Positions 2,998 through 21,909 of a stretch of DNA of 64,000 nt are shown here, piece by piece (the first letter of the stretch is position 1; each line of letters begins with the position of its first letter). A program made the position numbers and the translations under genes. Below the pieces are notes generated by a model that saw only the letters and a program-made list of their open reading frames with translations, was not told the origin of the DNA and ran no database searches. Location: the sequence record MN850584.1, one strand, 5' to 3'. Origin of the DNA: Escherichia phage arall.

Positions 2998-3417
2998 TTG
3001 GCTATTTCATCTTATTCAAAGATCAGTAGAAGCACATCTAATAGTGGCTACAATGCAGTATTTATTGATCGAACTTTAGGCTACTATTCTTGGTACTTAC
3101 CTACAGAACAGTACCCAGATCAAACATATACAGTAACTCTCGATGGAGTAGATTACGATATACGTTTGAGGTGGAACACAAGAGATCAAGCGTGGCAAAT
3201 GCAATTAGGCTTATCAGGAGATAATCCTAGTGTAACTTTTAAAGTAACCAATGGCTTAGATCTTCTAGAACCCTATAAGTATATAGAATCTGTACCGGAT
3301 GGTCAACTTTATTTGGTAGATACTGTTAAAATAAACGGTAGACCTAATTACTATGACACAGGTGTAGATAAAAGATTTGCTTTGGTTTATATCGACGCTC
3401 TTCCATATCAAGCATGA
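2998..3417 (+). CDS. hypothetical structural protein
   Basis: 139 aa; TTG start 7 nt after AAGGAG; tightly packed in baseplate module. Confidence 0.45.
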   Translation: MAISSYSKISRSTSNSGYNAVFIDRTLGYYSWYLPTEQYPDQTYTVTLDGVDYDIRLRWNTRDQAWQMQLGLSGDNPSVTFKVTNGLDLLEPYKYIESVPDGQLYLVDTVKINGRPNYYDTGVDKRFALVYIDALPYQA

Positions 3418-3432
3418 TAAAAGGAGTTTTAA

Positions 3433-4443
3433 ATGGCAGAAAAAAGAGATTATACAAAAGCTCCTGCACCCAATCTAAACAGAGCATACAAACTGTTAAT
3501 AGGTACAGCTACTAATACTAAAGAAAAAAGGACAAAAAATTCCTCTTTCAAATCTACAGTAGACTTAGATACTAAACTAGGGGATGCTAAAAAATCAACC
3601 CCTAATTTGTATGTTATTACGGAGCACCAAATATCTTTCACAATAAGAAAAGATAATAATAAAGATCCTAATCAAGCTGAGATAACTATTTATAACCTAA
3701 GCGATGATACTGTTAATTATATTAACAAAGGTATTCGTAACAACTTGGCTGTTGCTTTGGCGGTAGGTTATGAAGGTCAAGAGTTAATTATGATCTTTAA
3801 GGGAACGGTGCAATGGGTGAGTGATACTTTTAACAATACAGACAGACGTACAGTGTTACATTGTCTGGATGGTGGTATTAACATCTCCGAAGCAAGGACA
3901 AGCAGAAGTTATCCGAAAGGTACAAAAGTAAGTAAAGTTGTTAAAGATTTAGTTAAAGATTTAGGTACTACAGAAGGTAATATTCACGTAGACACAGAGA
4001 AAACTTTATCATCTGCAACAGCTATGTGTGGTAACACATCACATTACTTAGAAAGTATCTGTAAAGGTATTGATCATAATGTGTCGATACAAGATGGATC
4101 TGTTTACGTGACACCAAGATCACAAATGTCTAGTGCAAGATGCGCATATATTAGTGCAGAAACAGGTTTAATTGGTAGTCCAGAACCTTTCCACAATGAT
4201 ATTAAACCAACACAAAAAGTAACTAAATCTTCTAAGAAAGCTAAAAAGCCTACAGATGGTGTTAAGTTCAGATGTGAAATGAACGGTGCTATCTTACCAG
4301 AAAAAACTGTTTGGCTCAAGAGTCATAACTATGATGGTGGTTTTAAGGTAGTATCTGTTGTTCATACAGGAGATAGGGAAGGTAAAGACTGGACAACTGA
4401 AGTAGAGTCTGTATCTGTATCTGCAATTATTAAGAAGGGCTAG
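3433..4443 (+). CDS. baseplate hub-like protein (XkdQ/gpD-like by position)
   Basis: 336 aa; AAGGAG RBS; position between tape measure and spike-like gene; no motif confirmed. Confidence 0.35.
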   Translation: MAEKRDYTKAPAPNLNRAYKLLIGTATNTKEKRTKNSSFKSTVDLDTKLGDAKKSTPNLYVITEHQISFTIRKDNNKDPNQAEITIYNLSDDTVNYINKGIRNNLAVALAVGYEGQELIMIFKGTVQWVSDTFNNTDRRTVLHCLDGGINISEARTSRSYPKGTKVSKVVKDLVKDLGTTEGNIHVDTEKTLSSATAMCGNTSHYLESICKGIDHNVSIQDGSVYVTPRSQMSSARCAYISAETGLIGSPEPFHNDIKPTQKVTKSSKKAKKPTDGVKFRCEMNGAILPEKTVWLKSHNYDGGFKVVSVVHTGDREGKDWTTEVESVSVSAIIKKG

Positions 4444-4445
4444 AA

Positions 4446-5183
4446 ATGGATGCTTTAAATTTTGTAACAGCAATCCGTGGATTAATCAACGAGCAAGTTG
4501 CGGAAGTACATACATCTTTACCTGTAAGGGTAATTGGTGTAGATTATGGATCTAAGACAGTAACTTTAGAATCTATTGTAAAAAACACCAGATCTACTGA
4601 AGATGAAATAGATTACCCAACATTCCACGATGTTCCTTTTATGGTAAATGGTGGTGGTACAGGTAGAATTTCATTTCCAATTAAAGCAGGAGATATTGGT
4701 GTTGTTGTCTTTTCAGAAAGAGATCCGTCGAATGCTTTCCAGACAGACGGAGATACAGCCAGCAGCGGAACATTAATTCAACCTTGTGGTTTGTATCCAG
4801 CCTGTTTTATTCCTAAGATAGCAACAGCTACAGATTCTTCTGAAGAAGTAGACTCTGAAAAAGTTGTTATCTCAAATAATAAGCAAACTTACGCTTCGTT
4901 TGATCCTAACGGTAATATATCTGTGTACAACACACAAGGTATGAAAATAGATATGACACCAAACAGTATCGTTCTTACTGATGCAGGAGGAGGAAAACTT
5001 ACACTGCAAGGTGGGACTATGACATATAAAGGTGGTACTGTAAATTTAAACGGTTTAACAATCACACCTGACGGTCGTATGAAAGATAGTGGTGGCATTG
5101 GTTTACACACACATACACACCCTGTACGCGGTGTTGAAACTGGTGGTAGCACTGTTACTTCCGACAAACCAAATGGAGGTTAA
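4446..5183 (+). CDS. baseplate spike / gpV-like protein (candidate)
   Basis: 245 aa; N-terminal segment with GD/G-rich strand pattern (GGGTGRISFPIKAGDIGVVVFSERD) resembling the OB-fold of gpV-type spikes; position. Confidence 0.4.
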   Translation: MDALNFVTAIRGLINEQVAEVHTSLPVRVIGVDYGSKTVTLESIVKNTRSTEDEIDYPTFHDVPFMVNGGGTGRISFPIKAGDIGVVVFSERDPSNAFQTDGDTASSGTLIQPCGLYPACFIPKIATATDSSEEVDSEKVVISNNKQTYASFDPNGNISVYNTQGMKIDMTPNSIVLTDAGGGKLTLQGGTMTYKGGTVNLNGLTITPDGRMKDSGGIGLHTHTHPVRGVETGGSTVTSDKPNGG

Positions 5184-9172: not shown

Positions 9173-11248
9173 ATGAAACAGGCTATTTTTACTGTAACTC
9201 GAAATACGAGAGTAAATGCCAGTTCATTCAGCTATAAGACCGTCGATGGAACGGCGGTCGCTGGTAGAGATTATGTAGCTAAACAGGGAACAGTAACGTT
9301 CCCTTCTGATGCAGATTCTGCTACTGTAGTGGTTGATGTATATGAACGTCCGGCAAACTCTTTAGATCTTTATTTTACTCTTGAGATTACTAGCATAAGT
9401 CAAAATAACATGATGATCAACGAAGAAATTCGTTGTGTTATTACGACTGATCAATCGAATACAACCCCGCTAACTTGGCCTGTTGTGAAGTCTAGAATGT
9501 TTGATCCTAAGTTTTGGACAATAGATTCTCAAGCAACAGAAAGTTGTTCTATTATCTCTAATGGTGATTCTTTCACAGCAAGAATGGTTAATAGGACAGT
9601 GGCTGGTCTTGCTGGGATTATTTGGTCAACTTACGATAAATATGATCACAAAGGATTAGGCTACCAAGAACATTCTGACTTAAGTAAAGAGAAACTTTGG
9701 TTTAAAATGGAACTTAGTCAAGGTGTTCCTGGATTAAAAGAAGAAAAATTAATACCATCCTTAACAGTGACACTGAAGGATGAAACAGTTCATTATGTAT
9801 CTCTAAACTTTTATGCAGAAGAAGTTTCAGAAGATGGTAAGACAGCAACAATCAAACTAGATTTCTCAAATTTAAAATCTGGGCCAGAAAATGATATTGT
9901 TGTTGACACTACACAGATAGATAATATGTTCTTCTCCTTGATCTCCACAAGGTATCAAGAAATTGAAGATATTATTCCTGTAGACAATGTGGATCTTTCC
10001 TTTAAGTTTACCATACTGGAGCCTGATACTGGTTACAGTATGATGAATATGGGTAATTTAAATGTTCCAGCACACACCATAAGAATGTGTACATCTTATG
10101 ATGATATGTATAACCTGACCCCAGAGCGAGTTATTTCTAACACCTACAGATTAGGTTATAGGGATATGATTAACCATTATAATGGTATGTCACACTATTA
10201 TCAGTTTAGTTGGGATGCTGGTTCTAATAAATGGGTTTTGAATAGAACAGAATATTTAAACCCAGCAACAGAAGCATGGTTTGATAATTTCCACGCTAAT
10301 GCAAAAGCTATGGGCTACACAGTAATGAACTCCTTAAGTTTTGAACTTATGAGTACAGTGTGTCCTGTAGAATGGGTTCAACATACTTGGAATGATGATC
10401 TGGCTGCTACAGGTTATGAGCCACCAAGTTATGTTTTATCTCCTTCAATTGATGAAGGGATGAATTATTTACAAGGTGTAATAAATAAGATAGCTTCTAT
10501 ATCCGCTGCCAATGATCTTCCTGTTATTATTCAGGTTGGTGAACCGTGGTGGTGGTATAACACAGCTACCAATCTACCGTGTATTTATGATTATACAACC
10601 AAAGTTGCATTTAATAATGAAACTGGATTATATGCACAAGATGTTGGTACAGTTAAGAATTATAAAACTGGTACACCATATGATGAATATTATGCATTCC
10701 TATCTAAAACATTAGGACTGCGTGTTGCTAAATTTGCAACAGATACTAGATTAGCATATCCTGGGGCTAAAGTTACATTATTACCATTTGTGCCATCCAT
10801 TTTAGGTAACGGTATGATGGAGTTTGTTAACTTCCCTAAAGATTATTATATCCCAGAAAACTTTGACTTTTATTGTTCAGAATGTTATGACTGGTTGTTG
10901 GAAGGTCAGATGGAAAGATCTTTCGACGCTATTAAAATACCTAATGAGCAACTAGGTTTTAGTTATGATAAGATACATTATCTTGCAGGGTTTGTTCCAG
11001 ATGCAACTCTAGCACCATTATATGGCTTTGATCCTGAATCAGACTACAGAACATATTTGTGGAAAATGATTATAGGTAATATTGTATTGAATGACCAGAA
11101 GTTTGTTGGTTTGTATCAATACATATGGGCTTATCCACAAATTATGGCAGATTCATTAACTGTTCTTAATTCAAAATCCCAAGTTTTTTATATGGGTAAC
11201 GTACCTCTGAATGTCTTTTTACAAGATACAGTATATGTTTCTTCTTAA
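9173..11248 (+). CDS. structural protein with N-terminal Calx-beta-like domain
   Basis: 691 aa; FSYKTVDGTAVAGRDYVAKQGTVTFPSDADSATVVVDV matches the Calx-beta signature (DGTA..G.DY … g.v.F). Confidence 0.45.
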   Translation: MKQAIFTVTRNTRVNASSFSYKTVDGTAVAGRDYVAKQGTVTFPSDADSATVVVDVYERPANSLDLYFTLEITSISQNNMMINEEIRCVITTDQSNTTPLTWPVVKSRMFDPKFWTIDSQATESCSIISNGDSFTARMVNRTVAGLAGIIWSTYDKYDHKGLGYQEHSDLSKEKLWFKMELSQGVPGLKEEKLIPSLTVTLKDETVHYVSLNFYAEEVSEDGKTATIKLDFSNLKSGPENDIVVDTTQIDNMFFSLISTRYQEIEDIIPVDNVDLSFKFTILEPDTGYSMMNMGNLNVPAHTIRMCTSYDDMYNLTPERVISNTYRLGYRDMINHYNGMSHYYQFSWDAGSNKWVLNRTEYLNPATEAWFDNFHANAKAMGYTVMNSLSFELMSTVCPVEWVQHTWNDDLAATGYEPPSYVLSPSIDEGMNYLQGVINKIASISAANDLPVIIQVGEPWWWYNTATNLPCIYDYTTKVAFNNETGLYAQDVGTVKNYKTGTPYDEYYAFLSKTLGLRVAKFATDTRLAYPGAKVTLLPFVPSILGNGMMEFVNFPKDYYIPENFDFYCSECYDWLLEGQMERSFDAIKIPNEQLGFSYDKIHYLAGFVPDATLAPLYGFDPESDYRTYLWKMIIGNIVLNDQKFVGLYQYIWAYPQIMADSLTVLNSKSQVFYMGNVPLNVFLQDTVYVSS

Positions 11249-15191: not shown

Positions 15192-15533
15192 ATGGAGCTA
15201 ACAGAAGTATGGGATATCGCTAAAGAGGCGATTATCCCTCTTATTGGCGTAATCTGGGTGGTCTTCAAACAGAAGATAGATGATATGGCAAGTGATTTGG
15301 ATAAAATGGAAGACAAATACCGCGAACTAGAAAAGAAGTTGGTGTTTGTTGAATCCACTTATGCTACCAAAGCAGAACTTGCTCAAATGCTTAACCAGAT
15401 CAACTCTACATTAATGGCAAATAATACTGCCTTAGAACAGAAGATTGAAAAAATAATGGATTTAAAAAATGCTCCTGTTCAATTAATGTTAGAGGAGATT
15501 ACAAAGCGCACACAAAGTAAGGACAAAAATTAA
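15192..15533 (+). CDS. membrane-anchored coiled-coil protein (possible lysis-associated XhlA-like or fiber accessory)
   Basis: 113 aa; one TM segment (AIIPLIGVIWVVF) followed by coiled coil. Confidence 0.35.
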   Translation: MELTEVWDIAKEAIIPLIGVIWVVFKQKIDDMASDLDKMEDKYRELEKKLVFVESTYATKAELAQMLNQINSTLMANNTALEQKIEKIMDLKNAPVQLMLEEITKRTQSKDKN

Positions 15534-17947
15534 TGGCGAATTTTCCAACATATCCTGCTACGACACTAGAACAAGGTGTTGATCTGGTTATATTCTCGTC
15601 TAACCAGATGCATGATGTTATTAATGGGGATGCTACAGCAACTGTAGAAACCGAAACAGGTTTAATACCTACACTGCGTAAAGCACTTGTTGATAACTTC
15701 TTCTTTAAGAGTCCTGTTGCTTGGTCAGCAGGATCAACTGAAACTGTATTTAACCAGTTACGTTATTTTGAAAACGGTATCTTGAGTGGGTACTATTATG
15801 CCCCATCTGCCACTACTGCGAACCCTGTACCTATGCAGGGCACACCTGTAGGGGACAGTAACTGGACTCTGTACGCTCTTAAAACTGAACAGTTAGCTTC
15901 AGATGTATATCCTTGGTATTTTAAAGGTGCTACAGGATATGAAACAGAAATCAGTCCTCCTTATATCTTTGATAATGCTATTGTCACCATTAACGGTGTA
16001 ATTCAGATTCAAGGTGAAGCATTTACTATCAAAGATAGTAAAATTATTCTGGCAGAACCATTAGGTTTAGATCCGTCTACTGGTCTACCTAACAAATTGT
16101 TTGCTTTTATTGGTAAAACAACAGCCTCTACTTCTTACGTAGAGAAAAACCTTTTGTCATCTACCACTGGTGCAGCAATGGTTGGTCTTCCATCTGGAGG
16201 CAACCTGTTACAAGCTCAATACTTTGTAACGCCTGAGCAGTTTGGTGCAATTGGTGATGGAGTTACCGATGATACTCAAGCAATTTTAAAAACTATCACT
16301 TTCGCTAACACGAATAACATTCAAGTACGTGCGGATAAGAATTATAGATTCACAAGCTCAATTGCTATGTCTGGTATTCGTTGGTATGGTGGTACATTCA
16401 CTGGTAACGGTGGAACAATGATTTCTACTGTGTCCTGTTGGATGGAAAACGTTCGCTTTGAAAAATGTTATGTTAAGATGTTAGGTGGCGATTGCCGATT
16501 CTATCGTAATATCTTCTCCAACGCAACATCTACAGCAGCATTCTTAATGCAAACAATGACAAGTGAAGGTACGTTGGACTTCAGTTACAACGAAATGTAT
16601 GGTTGTAAATATGCGATCCTACAACAAGGTACTGGAGAAGTAATGACCTATGGGCGTTACTCTAACAACTATATTCACGATATCAAAGGTGATGCTATTG
16701 AACTTAACGTAGTTCAAAAACACTACACTGAAGGTTTGATTATCGAGAATAACCACATTGCTAACGTAGATGCTTCTGGACAAGGGGCAAACTGGGGTAT
16801 TGGTATTGGTGTAGCAGGTAGTGGCCCATATGGTGTTGATGTTCCTGATTCACAATATGTACGTAACTTCAGTATCGTTGGGAATAGGGTTTACAATTGC
16901 CGTCAATGTTTACACGTTGAAATGGGTAAAAACTTCACGATACGTGATAATGAAGTTTATCCTAACACAGCAGTTTCAACAGGTACAGGTTTAACTACTT
17001 GTGGTGTTGCATTATACGGATGCCAAGATTTTGAAGTTGATGGTTTAACTGGTTATCTGCTTAATGATCCGTCTGTTTCAACACGCATGGTCTTTATTGA
17101 TTGGGGTGTTAACAGTGGAAGATATGCGGGGCCACCAATTAACTTTACAATTAAGAATTTGGATATTCCAGAATCTTCAATTGAGATTGCAACATCTGGA
17201 TCAGATGCTTGGGAAAACTCTACAATTGTTAGTAACATCAATTGTAATGTTTTTAAATGGCGTGGGCTACCATCTAGCTCTACTTTTAATAATATTCGTT
17301 GCCGTAGTATTGACTTTATTGGTCAACACGGAAGCGGAGAAGGAAGTGGTGGCGGTTTCTATACTCGCAGCCAATTCACGTATATGAAGTGGGTAGGATG
17401 TACAGCACTTAGCGGAGATGAAACAACAGTTTCTTTTGCTAAAATCTACACTGATCGTTGCGATCAGGTTGGAAATAACTTTGGTGTTCCAACTGCTGTT
17501 GATGGTACAGGTCATCGTGGGCCAGTTTTAACTACTATTTCTGAACAATATTTTACAGCTTATGATGAATTCCCAGGTGGGCGTGAATTCCCTACTGGAA
17601 CAGTTATTCATTGTGCAAGCGGTAAAAAACATGTTGTTACAGTAGGTGGTGCTTTCTTCAGTGCCAACGAGAAAATAAAAGCAACTGTTACAGGTCAAAC
17701 CTATCTACAGTCTAATGCTTTAAACTGGGCTAGTAATGGCTACGCTAAAGCAGCAGGTACTAAGATTGTTATTCCAGGTGCAGGTGCAAATGGCGGCGAT
17801 CTTGTGACAACTATAGCACGTGCTACATACGTGACAAATAGTTTGTACACAATAGATATTGCAGATCCAATTGTAACACCTACAGCAGAGAATACACAAA
17901 TTAAAGCTCTGAATCCTGTTACTTTTGTTACTGTCAACAATGCTTAA
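15533..17947 (+). CDS. tailspike / depolymerase-like protein
   Basis: 804 aa; Gly/Asn-rich turn-rich stretches (NNHIANVDASGQGANWGIGIGVAGSG) suggest a beta-helix; followed by a terminator. Confidence 0.45.
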   Translation: MANFPTYPATTLEQGVDLVIFSSNQMHDVINGDATATVETETGLIPTLRKALVDNFFFKSPVAWSAGSTETVFNQLRYFENGILSGYYYAPSATTANPVPMQGTPVGDSNWTLYALKTEQLASDVYPWYFKGATGYETEISPPYIFDNAIVTINGVIQIQGEAFTIKDSKIILAEPLGLDPSTGLPNKLFAFIGKTTASTSYVEKNLLSSTTGAAMVGLPSGGNLLQAQYFVTPEQFGAIGDGVTDDTQAILKTITFANTNNIQVRADKNYRFTSSIAMSGIRWYGGTFTGNGGTMISTVSCWMENVRFEKCYVKMLGGDCRFYRNIFSNATSTAAFLMQTMTSEGTLDFSYNEMYGCKYAILQQGTGEVMTYGRYSNNYIHDIKGDAIELNVVQKHYTEGLIIENNHIANVDASGQGANWGIGIGVAGSGPYGVDVPDSQYVRNFSIVGNRVYNCRQCLHVEMGKNFTIRDNEVYPNTAVSTGTGLTTCGVALYGCQDFEVDGLTGYLLNDPSVSTRMVFIDWGVNSGRYAGPPINFTIKNLDIPESSIEIATSGSDAWENSTIVSNINCNVFKWRGLPSSSTFNNIRCRSIDFIGQHGSGEGSGGGFYTRSQFTYMKWVGCTALSGDETTVSFAKIYTDRCDQVGNNFGVPTAVDGTGHRGPVLTTISEQYFTAYDEFPGGREFPTGTVIHCASGKKHVVTVGGAFFSANEKIKATVTGQTYLQSNALNWASNGYAKAAGTKIVIPGAGANGGDLVTTIARATYVTNSLYTIDIADPIVTPTAENTQIKALNPVTFVTVNNA

Positions 17948-17988: not shown

Positions 17989-19950
17989 GTGATTTTAACA
18001 CGTCCAAATAGTGCCATTGCAGACATGGTAGAGTCTCGCTATAGAAAGCGTAGAAGTTTTGCAAGTGGTTTTACCTTAAGAGATGCTCGTGAAGCATTGC
18101 TCTTTGAAACTGACGGTAACTACTATCAGTGGAAAGGTTCTCTACCTAAAGTTGTACCTGCTAACTCTACTCCTACATCTACTGGAGGGATTTCAGATAC
18201 AGCTTGGAAAAATGTGGGTAATGCAGATGACATTGCTCAAATAGAATCAGAATTAGATGCTATTGAAGCTGAAATTGAAGATCTTAGAGAATCCATCCCA
18301 GAAGCTGGTAAATCAGCTTACCAAATTGCCGTAGACAATGGTTTCCAAGGTACTGAGACACAGTGGTTGGCTTCTTTAAAAGGTGATCCAGGTGCTCCAT
18401 TAAAGCTACTAGGGACGCTATCTAATACCAACCAATTACCTACAACTGGAAACAATGCAGGGGATGCATGGATTGTAGGCGAGAATATGTATGCTTGGGA
18501 TGGTACTGCTTGGAGAAAAGTAAACTCACAGGGGCCAGAAGGTAAATCTGCTTATGAAGTATGGCTTGCAGCAGGAAACGAAGGTACAGAACTAGATTAT
18601 CTTGCCGCAATTAAAGGTGATAAAGGGGAGCCTGGCTCAGAGGGGCCACAAGGTGTGCCAGGTAATAATGCTAATGGTTTTGATTACCAAGGCGCAGCTA
18701 ATTCCGTTTCAGATCTTCCTTCTGCATCTCCTGGAAACACATCTCAAGCATGGAGTATTGGTACATATCTATACGTGTCAAACGGTGTAGAATGGATCAA
18801 TATGGGCGCTATAGTGGGGCCAAAAGGAGATAAAGGCGACAAAGGAGATAAGGGTAACACTGGTGATTCAGCTTATCAAGTCTGGTTAAATGCTGGTAAC
18901 GTTGGTACTATTGACGAATATATTGCCTCTCTGAAAGGAGAAAAAGGTGATAAGGGAGACAAGGGTGATCAAGGTGCACAGGGTATACAAGGCTTGACGG
19001 GGCCAACTGGTGCAGGGTTGACCATTATTGATATTCTGACTAACACTTCTGAACTACCACAAACTGGAGAAGATGGTGATGGTTATCTAATCAATAATGA
19101 ACTTTGGGTCTGGTTGCAAGGAGCCACAGAGTGGACAAATGTTGGTCGTTTAGCTGGTACTCCAATCACTGCAAAAGGACACGTTGTGTCTGCAAGTGCG
19201 CTTCCTCCTACAGCCAATTACGGTGATGCTTATCTGACGGAAGATACAGGTCATCTTTACATTTACACCTATAATGAACTAACTCAAACTGCTGAATATG
19301 TAGATATGGGTAGTTTGAAAGGTGATAAGGGTGAAAAAGGTGACGCTGGTACTAACGGTACAGACGGTGCAACTTGGATTGTTAAAACAACAGATCCAAT
19401 CTCTAGTGATGGTAAACAAGGTGATTATGCCTTTAATATCTCCACTGGCGAGGTGTTCTTAAAAACATCTGCAACTATCTGGATTTCTCAAGGTACACTA
19501 CCTAGTATCACAGATGCACCTAGTGATGGTAAGACTTATGCTCGTAAAGATGGAGCATGGGAAGAACTCACTAATTCTGTAGATGGTCAAGATATAGTTC
19601 CAACAAAAGTAACAACTAATTTTATAGAGGTTACAGCATATACTAACAATTCTGTTACAGGGGACTGGACACCTCCAGGAACACATAACATGAATGTGTT
19701 GAATCTTACTGGTAACTCTACTATAAAAGCATGGCCTGGTGTCGAAGATAGCACAAAACCTAAACCATTCTCTGCAATAGTTTATCTTATCCAAGATGCC
19801 ACTGGAGGTCGTACTGTTACTTTAGATCCATCTTACAAAGTAATTGGTTCCAGTGATATTAATACAAATCCTAACGGAGTAACAATACTACAACTAACAT
19901 ATTGTGGTGTTGGCGATTACGTGGATGCTATTGTTGCTAAACGCACATAA
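17989..19950 (+). CDS. tail fiber protein with collagen-like repeats
   Basis: 653 aa; GTG start after AAGGAG; G-X-Y runs (GPKGDKGDKGDKGNTG, GEKGDKGDKGDQGAQGIQGLTGPTGAG, GDKGEKGDAGTNGTDG) interleaved with three copies of a ~30-aa SAYQ…LKG module. Confidence 0.55.
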   Translation: MILTRPNSAIADMVESRYRKRRSFASGFTLRDAREALLFETDGNYYQWKGSLPKVVPANSTPTSTGGISDTAWKNVGNADDIAQIESELDAIEAEIEDLRESIPEAGKSAYQIAVDNGFQGTETQWLASLKGDPGAPLKLLGTLSNTNQLPTTGNNAGDAWIVGENMYAWDGTAWRKVNSQGPEGKSAYEVWLAAGNEGTELDYLAAIKGDKGEPGSEGPQGVPGNNANGFDYQGAANSVSDLPSASPGNTSQAWSIGTYLYVSNGVEWINMGAIVGPKGDKGDKGDKGNTGDSAYQVWLNAGNVGTIDEYIASLKGEKGDKGDKGDQGAQGIQGLTGPTGAGLTIIDILTNTSELPQTGEDGDGYLINNELWVWLQGATEWTNVGRLAGTPITAKGHVVSASALPPTANYGDAYLTEDTGHLYIYTYNELTQTAEYVDMGSLKGDKGEKGDAGTNGTDGATWIVKTTDPISSDGKQGDYAFNISTGEVFLKTSATIWISQGTLPSITDAPSDGKTYARKDGAWEELTNSVDGQDIVPTKVTTNFIEVTAYTNNSVTGDWTPPGTHNMNVLNLTGNSTIKAWPGVEDSTKPKPFSAIVYLIQDATGGRTVTLDPSYKVIGSSDINTNPNGVTILQLTYCGVGDYVDAIVAKRT

Positions 19951-19952
19951 TC

Positions 19953-19978
19953 AAAGCCCCTTCGGGGGCTTATTATTT
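19953..19978 (+). terminator. rho-independent terminator
   Basis: AAAGCCCC-TTCG-GGGGCTT hairpin followed by ATTATTT. Confidence 0.6.
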
Positions 19979-19989
19979 AAGGAGATTAA

Positions 19990-21876
19990 ATGTATCCTAT
20001 TCCTTTATTTATGTCAACAACATCAGCTTCAGTAGTAACAGCTACATCTATAACTACTTCCTCTATTGGTATTGCAATAGTTGGTGGTAAAAAACAACTG
20101 ACATACACAGTTACACCGGAAGATGGTGCATTATTTGATATAGCTTTTTCATCTTCAGATAATACCAAAATGGTTATAGATAATAGTGGTATGATGGAGT
20201 TTGTTGCCGAAGGTAGTTTTGATGCAATAATGACAGCTAAAAATAATTTAGGTGCTGTCTTAACTGATCAATCTGGTGGTTATGCTTCAGAATTAAGTGT
20301 GTACACTGAAAGTCTATCGGCTATGGATGTAGGCACTACTCAACAGTTGGTTGCTACAATCAGTCCAGAAGGTGCTAAAGACCTTCCAGATATGGTAATT
20401 ACATACACCACAACAGATCCAGAAGTAGCTACTGTAAGCCCTACAGGGTTAATAACTGCTCTTAAAGATGGCGGTTGCCGTATAGGTTGTACTGCAACGT
20501 ATCAAGGAACAGTTGTGGCCTCTGATAGGTCTTATTTAGGTGTTAATGCTATTCCTGTTATTTCTAATGTAACAGCCGTGGCAAACAGTTATGGAGACGT
20601 TCGTGTTGCTTGGGATGTAACTGATTCGCTAGACGGTGATACTTATACTGTAGAAGTATTAGATTTAAGTAATAATAGTGTTCAGTGGACTACAACAACC
20701 ACGAATACTCATGCTTACTTTGATATCTCTGACTCTATTCCTCTTTATGGGTTTGCTCCAACATACCTTAAAATTAGCGTTAAGAGCACCAAAGCAGCAG
20801 CCGTTATCTTTAATAACTCAATAGCTACAGATGATTCGTTCATTAAAGAAGTTATTGTCTTTGCTGGACAAGATAACGTAAATGCACACTTTACAGAACT
20901 ATCTGGTGCAAATAAAGCAGCAATGAGTAGCACAACAGCCCGTAATGCATATGCTACGCAACGTGGTTTAGCAAATGCTGAAGTTCTTCCGTTAAATACA
21001 GCTTCTGGATCATCAGCAGCAGATAAATATGCTGACGATAAAGCTGGAACAGGTACACCAGACAACTACTGGTATGATCTGGATAACACAGCAGATGGGC
21101 CATGCTTAACTAATTTTATCACTAAAGTCACACCTTATGCAAGTAAGGTTAAAGCGATTATTTGGGGACAAGGTGAAAATGATGCTGTATCAGCATCTTC
21201 AACTGTTGCAGGTAGGTACAGTAACACTACACGTTACCATGATGCTACGATAGCCATCTTTGATAAGATGCGTACAATAGTTCCTGCTTCTCAAGCAAAA
21301 ATTGTTTGGCAGATCCTAGGACGTTCTTATTTATATGGTGTAGAAGTTAATGGTGTGGATTGGCAGAAGTACAGAAATGTACAAAGAACCATCTCTACAG
21401 CACGTGATGATGTTATCATTGGTTCTTGGGTAGATGGTGCTGAACGTTACAGTGGTTATGTTTATGAAGAAGGTATTGATGGTCGTATCCATTATATTTC
21501 TTCTGTATACCAAACAGCAGCTACAAAACTTGCTAAATCGGCAGCAGACGGTACAGACTTAACATCAGCGTCACCTGTTTGGGTTGATATGTCTGTTCCA
21601 ACAGGAGGAGCCGCTGTAAGACAAGCTAACCAAGATGCAATTATCTCTTGGGAACCAGCAGGATATACTAAACATTACTTCCGAAATGTAAACGTCCTCA
21701 CAGCAGCAACTCTTACAGAACAAACCCTGGATACTAACACTTACACATTTACTTATGCAGATCAGGTTGAACAATATGGATTTGCAGCAGGTACAACAGC
21801 GTTTGATGTTGCACACTATGATGCTGATAATGACGTGTTATCACCTCTTGTCAGATTTACAGTCAATGTTACATAA
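19990..21876 (+). CDS. receptor-binding/tail protein with putative carbohydrate-esterase (SASA/DUF303-like) domain
   Basis: 628 aa; AAGGAG RBS; N-terminal Thr/Ser-rich Ig-like region; VFAGQDNVNAHF and IIWGQGENDA resemble the GQSN / WxQGE blocks of sialate O-acetylesterase-like domains. Confidence 0.45.
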   Translation: MYPIPLFMSTTSASVVTATSITTSSIGIAIVGGKKQLTYTVTPEDGALFDIAFSSSDNTKMVIDNSGMMEFVAEGSFDAIMTAKNNLGAVLTDQSGGYASELSVYTESLSAMDVGTTQQLVATISPEGAKDLPDMVITYTTTDPEVATVSPTGLITALKDGGCRIGCTATYQGTVVASDRSYLGVNAIPVISNVTAVANSYGDVRVAWDVTDSLDGDTYTVEVLDLSNNSVQWTTTTTNTHAYFDISDSIPLYGFAPTYLKISVKSTKAAAVIFNNSIATDDSFIKEVIVFAGQDNVNAHFTELSGANKAAMSSTTARNAYATQRGLANAEVLPLNTASGSSAADKYADDKAGTGTPDNYWYDLDNTADGPCLTNFITKVTPYASKVKAIIWGQGENDAVSASSTVAGRYSNTTRYHDATIAIFDKMRTIVPASQAKIVWQILGRSYLYGVEVNGVDWQKYRNVQRTISTARDDVIIGSWVDGAERYSGYVYEEGIDGRIHYISSVYQTAATKLAKSAADGTDLTSASPVWVDMSVPTGGAAVRQANQDAIISWEPAGYTKHYFRNVNVLTAATLTEQTLDTNTYTFTYADQVEQYGFAAGTTAFDVAHYDADNDVLSPLVRFTVNVT

Positions 21877-21881
21877 ACAAA

Positions 21882-21909
21882 AAGGAGCCAATAGGCTCCT
21901 TTTCTTTTA
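21882..21909. terminator. bidirectional terminator at convergent gene junction
   Basis: AAAGGAGCC-AATA-GGCTCCTTT hairpin with T-tracts on both sides; + gene ends 21876, - gene ends 21912. Confidence 0.6.

Follow-up and report, generated by a model that had tools for sequence, protein, structure and literature searches.

Esterases of the SASA type belong to the SGNH hydrolases, in which the Block I serine acts as nucleophile; a glutamine beside this serine (GQSN) and the (H)QGE motif of Block III are hallmarks of SASA and jointly form an inverted oxyanion hole, and NanS and many CE2 enzymes are active without the aspartate of Block V (PMC9487903). Tail fibres with such activity exist: gp63.1 of phage G7C (PDB 4qnl) and gp66 of Pectobacterium phage Possum are demonstrated O-antigen deacetylases of a different SGNH subfamily, with the catalytic serine intact. 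The non-contractile sheath protein gp65 of phage N4 is a receptor-binding protein whose receptor is NfrA, and residues 795-1195 of phiAxp-3 open reading frame (ORF) 69, which is reported to be 54% identical to gp65, are necessary and sufficient for adsorption block and for binding to the host and to lipopolysaccharide (PMC5862860). Here we consider the gene at positions 19990-21876 of a 64,000-nucleotide stretch of Escherichia phage arall (MN850584.1; the whole stretch is called the window below), which is a clean plus-strand ORF encoding 628 residues. Our analysis leads us to propose, at about even confidence, that the product, a relative of the N4 sheath, is an accessory protein of the tail, and that it carries an esterase-derived, serine-less module for glycan recognition and is not a working deacetylase.

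The SASA-type domain and its nucleophile position

The original prediction, which started from two short motifs, described a tail protein with a SASA-like carbohydrate esterase domain behind an Ig-like N-terminal region. Both motifs are present in the ORF (residues 290-301 and 390-399), and the assignment to SASA is borne out by several lines of evidence. An exhaustive HMMER scan with residues 270-540 against 1.8 billion representatives returned 76 relatives, and 22 of the 31 that were aligned have a Pfam SASA match of their own (E<=0.01; best E 2e-13), several of them above the gathering threshold. With the family profile, matches extend to the SASA/SGNH esterases of known structure 2apj, 1zmb and Ape1, and every Foldseek match in the PDB at E<=1e-3 is of SGNH type. 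Together these results indicate that the resemblance to SASA is real, and the domain has the three-layer alpha/beta/alpha SGNH (flavodoxin-like) fold. It differs from the SASA/CE6 enzymes (PF03629; 2apj, 1zmb and NanS, 3pt5) in that it has aspartate for serine, is set between beta-sandwiches in a protein of phage structural type, and scores 15.7-16.8 bits with Pfam SASA, which is below the gathering score of 24.8 and comes from a match that spans the block III region only. Compared with the G7C gp63.1 type it is nearer to SASA, but without the serine.

Apart from the nucleophile, every SASA hallmark is kept. The oxyanion-hole residue Gln294 is present (glutamine is found in 48 of 64 family domains at this column), and the Block II stretch N336-T-A-S-G340-S-S aligns with the family pattern N-x-A-x-G-(G/S)-S and supplies the backbone glycine of the oxyanion hole. 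In an alignment of 15 sequences that includes the Asp-type ones, G293, N296, H300, W392, G395, E396, D398, H501 and Y502 are invariant, and Q294 and Q394 are at least 90% conserved. In Block V, Gly498 stands three residues before the conserved histidine and Asp497 four residues before it; the canonical aspartate of the DxxH motif is found in only 10 of 47 relatives. Asn397 was considered as an oxyanion-hole asparagine and was rejected, since SASA enzymes use the Block I glutamine (PMC9487903) and column 397 is variable in the family. Because most relatives keep the series GQSN, QGE and histidine, the domain is best understood, on the grounds of its sequence, as a descendant of active O-acetylesterases.

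At the nucleophile position the picture is different from that originally predicted. The first motif had been likened to GQSN, and the actual residues are GQDN, with Asp295 where the family consensus, written in the coordinates of our protein, is GQSNAxGHF. Among 65 homologous domains this column holds serine in 50, aspartate in three and alanine in three, the others being scattered. Aspartate is found in all six Justusliebigvirus copies compared, and also in the homologue of the Avunavirus Av-05 (GGDN in place of GQDN), which is 41% identical over its full length. A change from serine to aspartate requires at least two nucleotide substitutions, so that a sequencing slip is not the explanation. 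The substitutions that mark the Asp clade are S295D, R372C, W362Y, P437K, R524L and N282D, and in the alignment no serine or threonine is found at the motif positions of this clade as a substitute. Residue 372 (21103-21105) is the arginine of a 'GPR' motif in 10 of 11 Ser-type relatives and cysteine in the Asp-type clade, of which it is the sole clade-specific cysteine; R372C accompanies S295D, with a net charge shift of -2.

The absence of the serine predicts the loss of canonical O-acetylesterase activity. A canonical Ser-His-Asp SASA esterase, which would modify the receptor by deacetylating capsule, teichoic acid or peptidoglycan as originally suggested, is in accordance with the genuine homology and fold of the domain and with the active SGNH deacetylases in the G7C and Possum tail fibres, but Asp295 (codon GAT) occupies the nucleophile position, there is no acid three residues before the histidine, and no motif serine or threonine replaces the one that is lost. 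At the level of the sequence a Ser-His-Asp triad could not be placed, and teichoic acid is in any case irrelevant as a substrate for a phage of E. coli. We therefore find a working deacetylase of this kind hardly credible, the nucleophile being replaced in all Justusliebigvirus copies examined and in Av-05.

The remaining pocket does not look like a decaying relic. Pairwise ratios of non-synonymous to synonymous substitution rates are 0.03-0.20 for the SASA-like domain and 0.10-0.25 for the whole gene, and these low values together with the invariant pocket residues indicate that the pocket is under maintenance, which speaks for the binding of a ligand or for chemistry of some kind more than for a mere scaffold. 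Such chemistry could be an O-acetylesterase or deacetylase activity with a non-canonical mechanism, in which Asp295 would be either a nucleophile that forms an acyl-aspartate or a general base that activates water together with His501, and in which Gln294 and QGE would form the oxyanion hole stabilising the transition state. This is in line with the strong purifying selection, with the survival of all non-nucleophile hallmarks in the Asp clade in spite of about 59% divergence between our protein and the Av-05 homologue, and with the fact that both Asp lineages (GQDN and GGDN) carry a chemically competent carboxylate, where other Ser-less relatives have alanine, methionine or valine. However, the review of the SGNH mechanism describes a serine nucleophile (PMC9487903), and a targeted literature search for exceptions found none. 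Aspartate is moreover confined to two lineages, its 'conservation' resting on one event, and the co-substitution R372C with the change in net charge suggests altered ligand chemistry rather than retained ester hydrolysis. The closest characterised relatives, N4 gp65 and phiAxp-3 ORF69, are also binders. Taking both sides together, we judge non-canonical catalysis decidedly unlikely.

Sheath-derived modules and allelic variation

The top sequence match in the PDB is the N4 sheath protein gp65 (PDB 9lc0 and 9yf4; phmmer E 6.9e-25, profile E 3.5e-81), and Foldseek aligns it with the SASA-type domain at E 6.8e-14 and a template modelling score of 0.75. N4 gp65 contains two SASA-like copies, and the beta-sandwich repeats behind them match the C-terminal domain of our protein; esterase-like domains in gp65 are not described in the N4 structural paper. 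The second N4 copy has lost nearly all of the motif residues (GINQFGGGHF, no QGE, 'SWIYY'). The same arrangement of a SASA-like SGNH domain and subsequent beta-sandwich repeats is seen in ORF69 of phiAxp-3 (Table 1), and the fragment of ORF69 with binding activity comprises most of its Ser-less second copy plus the two next beta-sandwiches. This would be equivalent to the modules at residues ~350-628 of our protein, a correspondence that is suggestive only.

The domain borders taken from a full-length AlphaFold2 (AF2) model, with a predicted local distance difference test (pLDDT) score of 84, show how these modules are arranged in our protein (Table 1). The Ig-like region predicted ahead of the SASA-like domain is indeed there, as a Pfam match to Big_2 (E 7.7e-13) and as beta-sandwiches in the model. 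Residues 189-269, in the third beta-sandwich, match residues 1213-1278 and 1301-1378 of ORF69, which are the last two sheath domains, and the C-terminal beta-sandwich is homologous to the repeats that follow the SASA-like domains in both N4 gp65 and ORF69. About 440 of the 628 residues are thus sheath-derived modules in a changed order, placed behind two Big_2 domains. The N-terminal start MYPIP is also kept in the 41%-identical Av-05 homologue, and the N-terminal peptide may be a docking peptide.

There are also clear differences from the N4 protein. Our ORF lacks the Pfam domains NCTSP_N (PF23844) and TIM-barrel_NCTSP (PF23845), which make up the N-terminal half of such sheaths and lie here in the separate gene at 9173-11248, has a single SASA-like copy instead of two, and has the N-terminal Big_2 domains in addition. 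N4 has a truncated copy that bears the serine and a second one that is degenerate throughout, whereas the single complete copy in our protein has lost only the serine. The phage is furthermore a contractile-tailed myovirus, which makes it implausible that the protein forms an N4-like podovirus sheath.

The truncated copies in the N4-like sheaths have a feature of their own. Residues 431-602 of gp65 of the N4-like phage SPSP and 433-602 of phiAxp-3 ORF69 cover profile positions 11-177 only (blocks I-III, with the serine kept as GESQ or GESN), and residues 14-78 of SPSP gp64 and 24-85 of phiAxp-3 gp64 cover positions 183-247 (block V, GQIHF or GQIHY). The pieces are exactly complementary, which suggests that in N4-type sheaths one SASA-like domain is built across a gp64-gp65 heterodimer, with a site whose serine would come from gp65 and whose histidine from gp64. 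The TIM barrel likewise appears to be split between the gp64 and gp65 chains.

The gene exists in two natural alleles. The 628-residue form is found in the window, in muut and in PD06, and a 939-residue form in Paula (locus positions 201-2284 and beyond), alia and P0003 is ~95% identical over residues 1-628 and then continues into an extra distal domain of 311 residues, in which a Pfam scan detected no family. The short and long classes are set apart by 32-34 non-synonymous changes in the C-terminal beta-sandwich (residues 535-628), and such strong divergence suggests modular exchange.

The copy in phi92 (locus L003, 2411-4073) has a frame-shifting deletion of 226 nucleotides, corresponding to window positions 20579-20804, and an insertion of two nucleotides after 20990, which together give rise to the annotated gp152 and gp153; the deletion takes out most of the third beta-sandwich. 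The phi92 type phage is therefore without an intact copy, through either pseudogenisation or an assembly error, and the gene is dispensable for growth on K92. A connection to O-acetylated polysialic acid, which could be drawn from SASA being a sialate esterase family and from the infection of K1/K92 by phi92, was rejected, since the gene is broken in phi92 and its closest relatives are N4-type sheath proteins and not sialate esterases.

These data also bear on whether the SASA-like domain is a mere structural spacer or scaffold taken over from an N4-type sheath, with receptor contact made by the Ig-like domains, the C-terminal beta-sandwich or the distal domain of the long allele. The degenerate second copy of N4 gp65 is, after all, part of a structural sheath, the most variable and allele-switching part of our protein is the C-terminal beta-sandwich and not the SASA-like domain, and a distal domain such as that of the 939-residue allele would be expected if specificity resides at the C-terminus. 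In a spacer, however, there would be no reason to expect that His501, Gln294 and QGE are conserved, and unlike N4 copy 2 the domain studied here keeps the full pocket signature except for the serine, invariant over the 15 sequences. We regard a pure spacer as unlikely, if by no means negligible.

The tail-fibre cluster

By megablast, the window belongs to Justusliebigvirus (phi92-like myoviruses, Stephanstirmvirinae); phage cardinal is 98.5% identical to it and muut 98.3%. Within a plus-strand tail-fibre cluster the gene comes last, and it faces convergent replication genes on the minus strand, in agreement with the tail protein of the original prediction. Its cluster-terminal position is also kept in Av-05. 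The hairpin ahead of the gene (Table 1) is a possible attenuating terminator, and the level of the protein may be below that of the preceding fibre.

Table 1. Positions of the gene, its domains and motifs and its neighbours in the window, with the mapped regions of phiAxp-3 ORF69 (in residues of that protein)
Feature	Position	Strand	Remarks
691-residue protein: Calx-beta, NCTSP_N (PF23844) and TIM-barrel_NCTSP (PF23845)	9173..11248	+	Pfam E 3.8e-21 (NCTSP_N) and 7.9e-82 (TIM-barrel_NCTSP)
Colanidase (phi92 gp150 homologue)	15533-17947		Upstream of the gene studied
gp151-like fibre	17989-19950		Directly precedes the gene studied in the cluster
GC-rich hairpin, then T-run	19954..19971	+	Between the gp151-like fibre gene (end 19950) and the gene studied
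Shine-Dalgarno sequence AAGGAG	19979..19984	+	5 nucleotides ahead of ATG
Gene studied: modular tail-cluster protein, 628 residues	19990..21876	+	Equals phi92 gp152+gp153 and muut gp034; PHROG 32204 'tail protein'
N-terminal peptide, residues 1-15	19990..20034	+	Disordered, low pLDDT; starts MYPIP
Two Big_2 Ig-like beta-sandwiches, residues ~16-100 and ~103-186	20035..20547	+	
Third beta-sandwich, residues ~189-275	20554..20814	+	Homologous to the final two domains of N4-type sheaths
SASA-type SGNH-fold (alpha/beta) domain, residues ~285-530	20842..21579	+	
Block I, G293-Q294-D295-N296	20866..20877	+	Asp295 (GAT, 20872-20874) at the nucleophile position
Block III, W392-G-Q394-G395-E396-N-D398-A	21163..21186	+	Family-defining QGE kept
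Block V, His501-Tyr502	21490..21495	+	His in 42/49 of the family
C-terminal beta-sandwich, residues ~535-628	21592..21873	+	pLDDT >90; two divergent allelic classes
Bidirectional intrinsic terminator	21879..21904	both	Strong, stem 10-11 bp; separates the tail module from the convergent minus-strand genes
phiAxp-3 ORF69, SASA-like copy 1	residues 433-602		Ser kept ("GESN"); own mapping
phiAxp-3 ORF69, SASA-like copy 2	residues 722-1000		Ser-less, His kept; own mapping
phiAxp-3 ORF69, beta-sandwiches	residues 1000-1182		Same type as the C-terminal domain of the protein studied; own mapping

Deposited names in more than 50 genomes are 'tail protein', 'lateral tail fiber protein' and, once, 'non-contractile tail sheath'. 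Two related loci were found in IMG/VR, both 98% identical, and a word-indexed homologue search with residues 270-628 gave two near-identical fragments only. The records of the 'Campylobacter phages' A150, C3, A110a and A145 (MG065639, MG065656, MG065689 and MG065645; ~146 kb) contain a gene 97.8% identical to ours, and that of 'Serratia phage KKP_3264' one that is 97.9% identical; the host labels of these records look doubtful. The Av-05 fibre upstream of the homologue (locus 3320-5074) is a mosaic of two proteins of the window, its N-terminus resembling that of the colanidase (50% identity over 109 residues) and its C-terminus that of the gp151-like fibre (38% over 213 residues), which indicates that attachment and tip modules are common to such clusters.

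Possible role in adsorption and relation to the NGR glycan

The position at the end of the cluster, the two alleles, the distal extension and the tolerated loss in phi92 are traits like those of receptor-binding proteins and are typical of an accessory adsorption protein. In the reading we favour, the protein would be an accessory member of the tail-fibre cluster, built like beads on a string from the N-terminal peptide, two Big_2 domains, a beta-sandwich, the SASA-type SGNH domain and the C-terminal beta-sandwich. In the Asp lineage the nucleophile has changed from serine to aspartate, with Gln294, the QGE network and His501 conserved under purifying selection, and the old active site would now be a lectin-like 'dead esterase', in whose pocket a glycan of the host surface is recognised but not hydrolysed. 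That the active-site cleft of an SGNH protein can bind polysaccharide has a precedent in the CE2 esterases (PDB 2w9x and 2wao), which use Ser-His dyads without the Block V aspartate, although these bacterial plant-cell-wall enzymes have kept both the serine and the activity. A glycan pocket of this kind would aid adsorption of the phage to the cell envelope, or its orientation there, and the leading candidate for a ligand would be the NGR glycan/NfrA system, which is required by N4 and by Justusliebigvirus.

A likely companion is the 691-residue protein encoded at 9173-11248, in which a region homologous to the N-terminus of N4 gp65 is joined to one homologous to gp64, the gp64-like barrel. 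In two relatives of our protein (P0005 and P0006) NCTSP_N and TIM-barrel_NCTSP are fused upstream of the SASA-like domain, and the 691-residue product is probably a functional partner of the protein studied here, with which it may associate. It is the protein called 'glycan deacetylase lateral tail fibre' in the BASEL work, common to N4 (gp64) and the Vequintavirinae and phi92-like phages (PMC8594841); Pfam assigns it a TIM barrel and not a CE4 deacetylase. Dependence on wecB and nfrB, that is on the NGR glycan, is described for N4, for Vequintavirinae and for the Justusliebigvirus phages Bas60-62 (PMC8669472, PMC8594841, PMC11990801).

It is tempting to speculate that the two proteins, whose genes lie ~9 kb apart, together rebuild the gp64/gp65 recognition unit of N4 on a myovirus baseplate, and that it is the Asp-bearing pocket by which the NGR glycan or the NfrA export complex is recognised and left uncleaved; as a complete scenario we consider this unlikely. 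A variant of it would be that Asp295 supports a new, serine-independent SGNH catalysis.

Several observations weigh against a glycan-binding role. Virion incorporation, glycan binding and the identity of the ligand are inferred; a search of the literature on gp152 and on the proteomics of Justusliebigvirus turned up no virion proteomic data, and with the gene broken in phi92 the protein is not visible in the cryo-electron microscopy work on that phage. Catalysis of a non-canonical kind, if retained, would also account for the strong conservation of His501 and the QGE network. The phiAxp-3 truncation at residues 795-1195 begins inside the alpha/beta domain and is accordingly a crude experiment. 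As regards the ligand, rV5-type Vequintavirus phages, which are NGR-dependent as well, gave no tblastn match to the SASA-type domain, which weakens the link to NGR, and the shared recognition was credited by the BASEL authors to the gp64-like TIM-barrel protein (PMC8594841).

The homology of the gene is already known from the deposited names. That the domain is of SASA type, that serine has given way to a fixed aspartate in an otherwise intact SASA signature, and that a myovirus carries N4-sheath modules on two separate genes all appear to be undescribed in the literature searched. The protein is also an annotation trap, since searches by motif or fold would call it a deacetylase although the defining nucleophile is absent. 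Should the pocket prove to be a lectin, it would be a compact, naturally inactivated glycan-binding module that could be re-activated (D295S) or serve as a probe.

The host ranges of Justusliebigvirus are among the broadest in coliphages, and its members are candidates for therapy. For the recognition of NGR by N4 and Justusliebigvirus, the sheath modules on two genes and the domain with the Ser-to-Asp change provide concrete, mutable targets with which NGR/NfrA recognition can be addressed. If the two proteins do rebuild the N4 recognition unit, this would be a natural conversion of an esterase into a lectin within a phage receptor-binding protein, and it would explain the NGR dependence and the O-antigen-bypassing host range that the podovirus N4 and the phi92-like myoviruses have in common.

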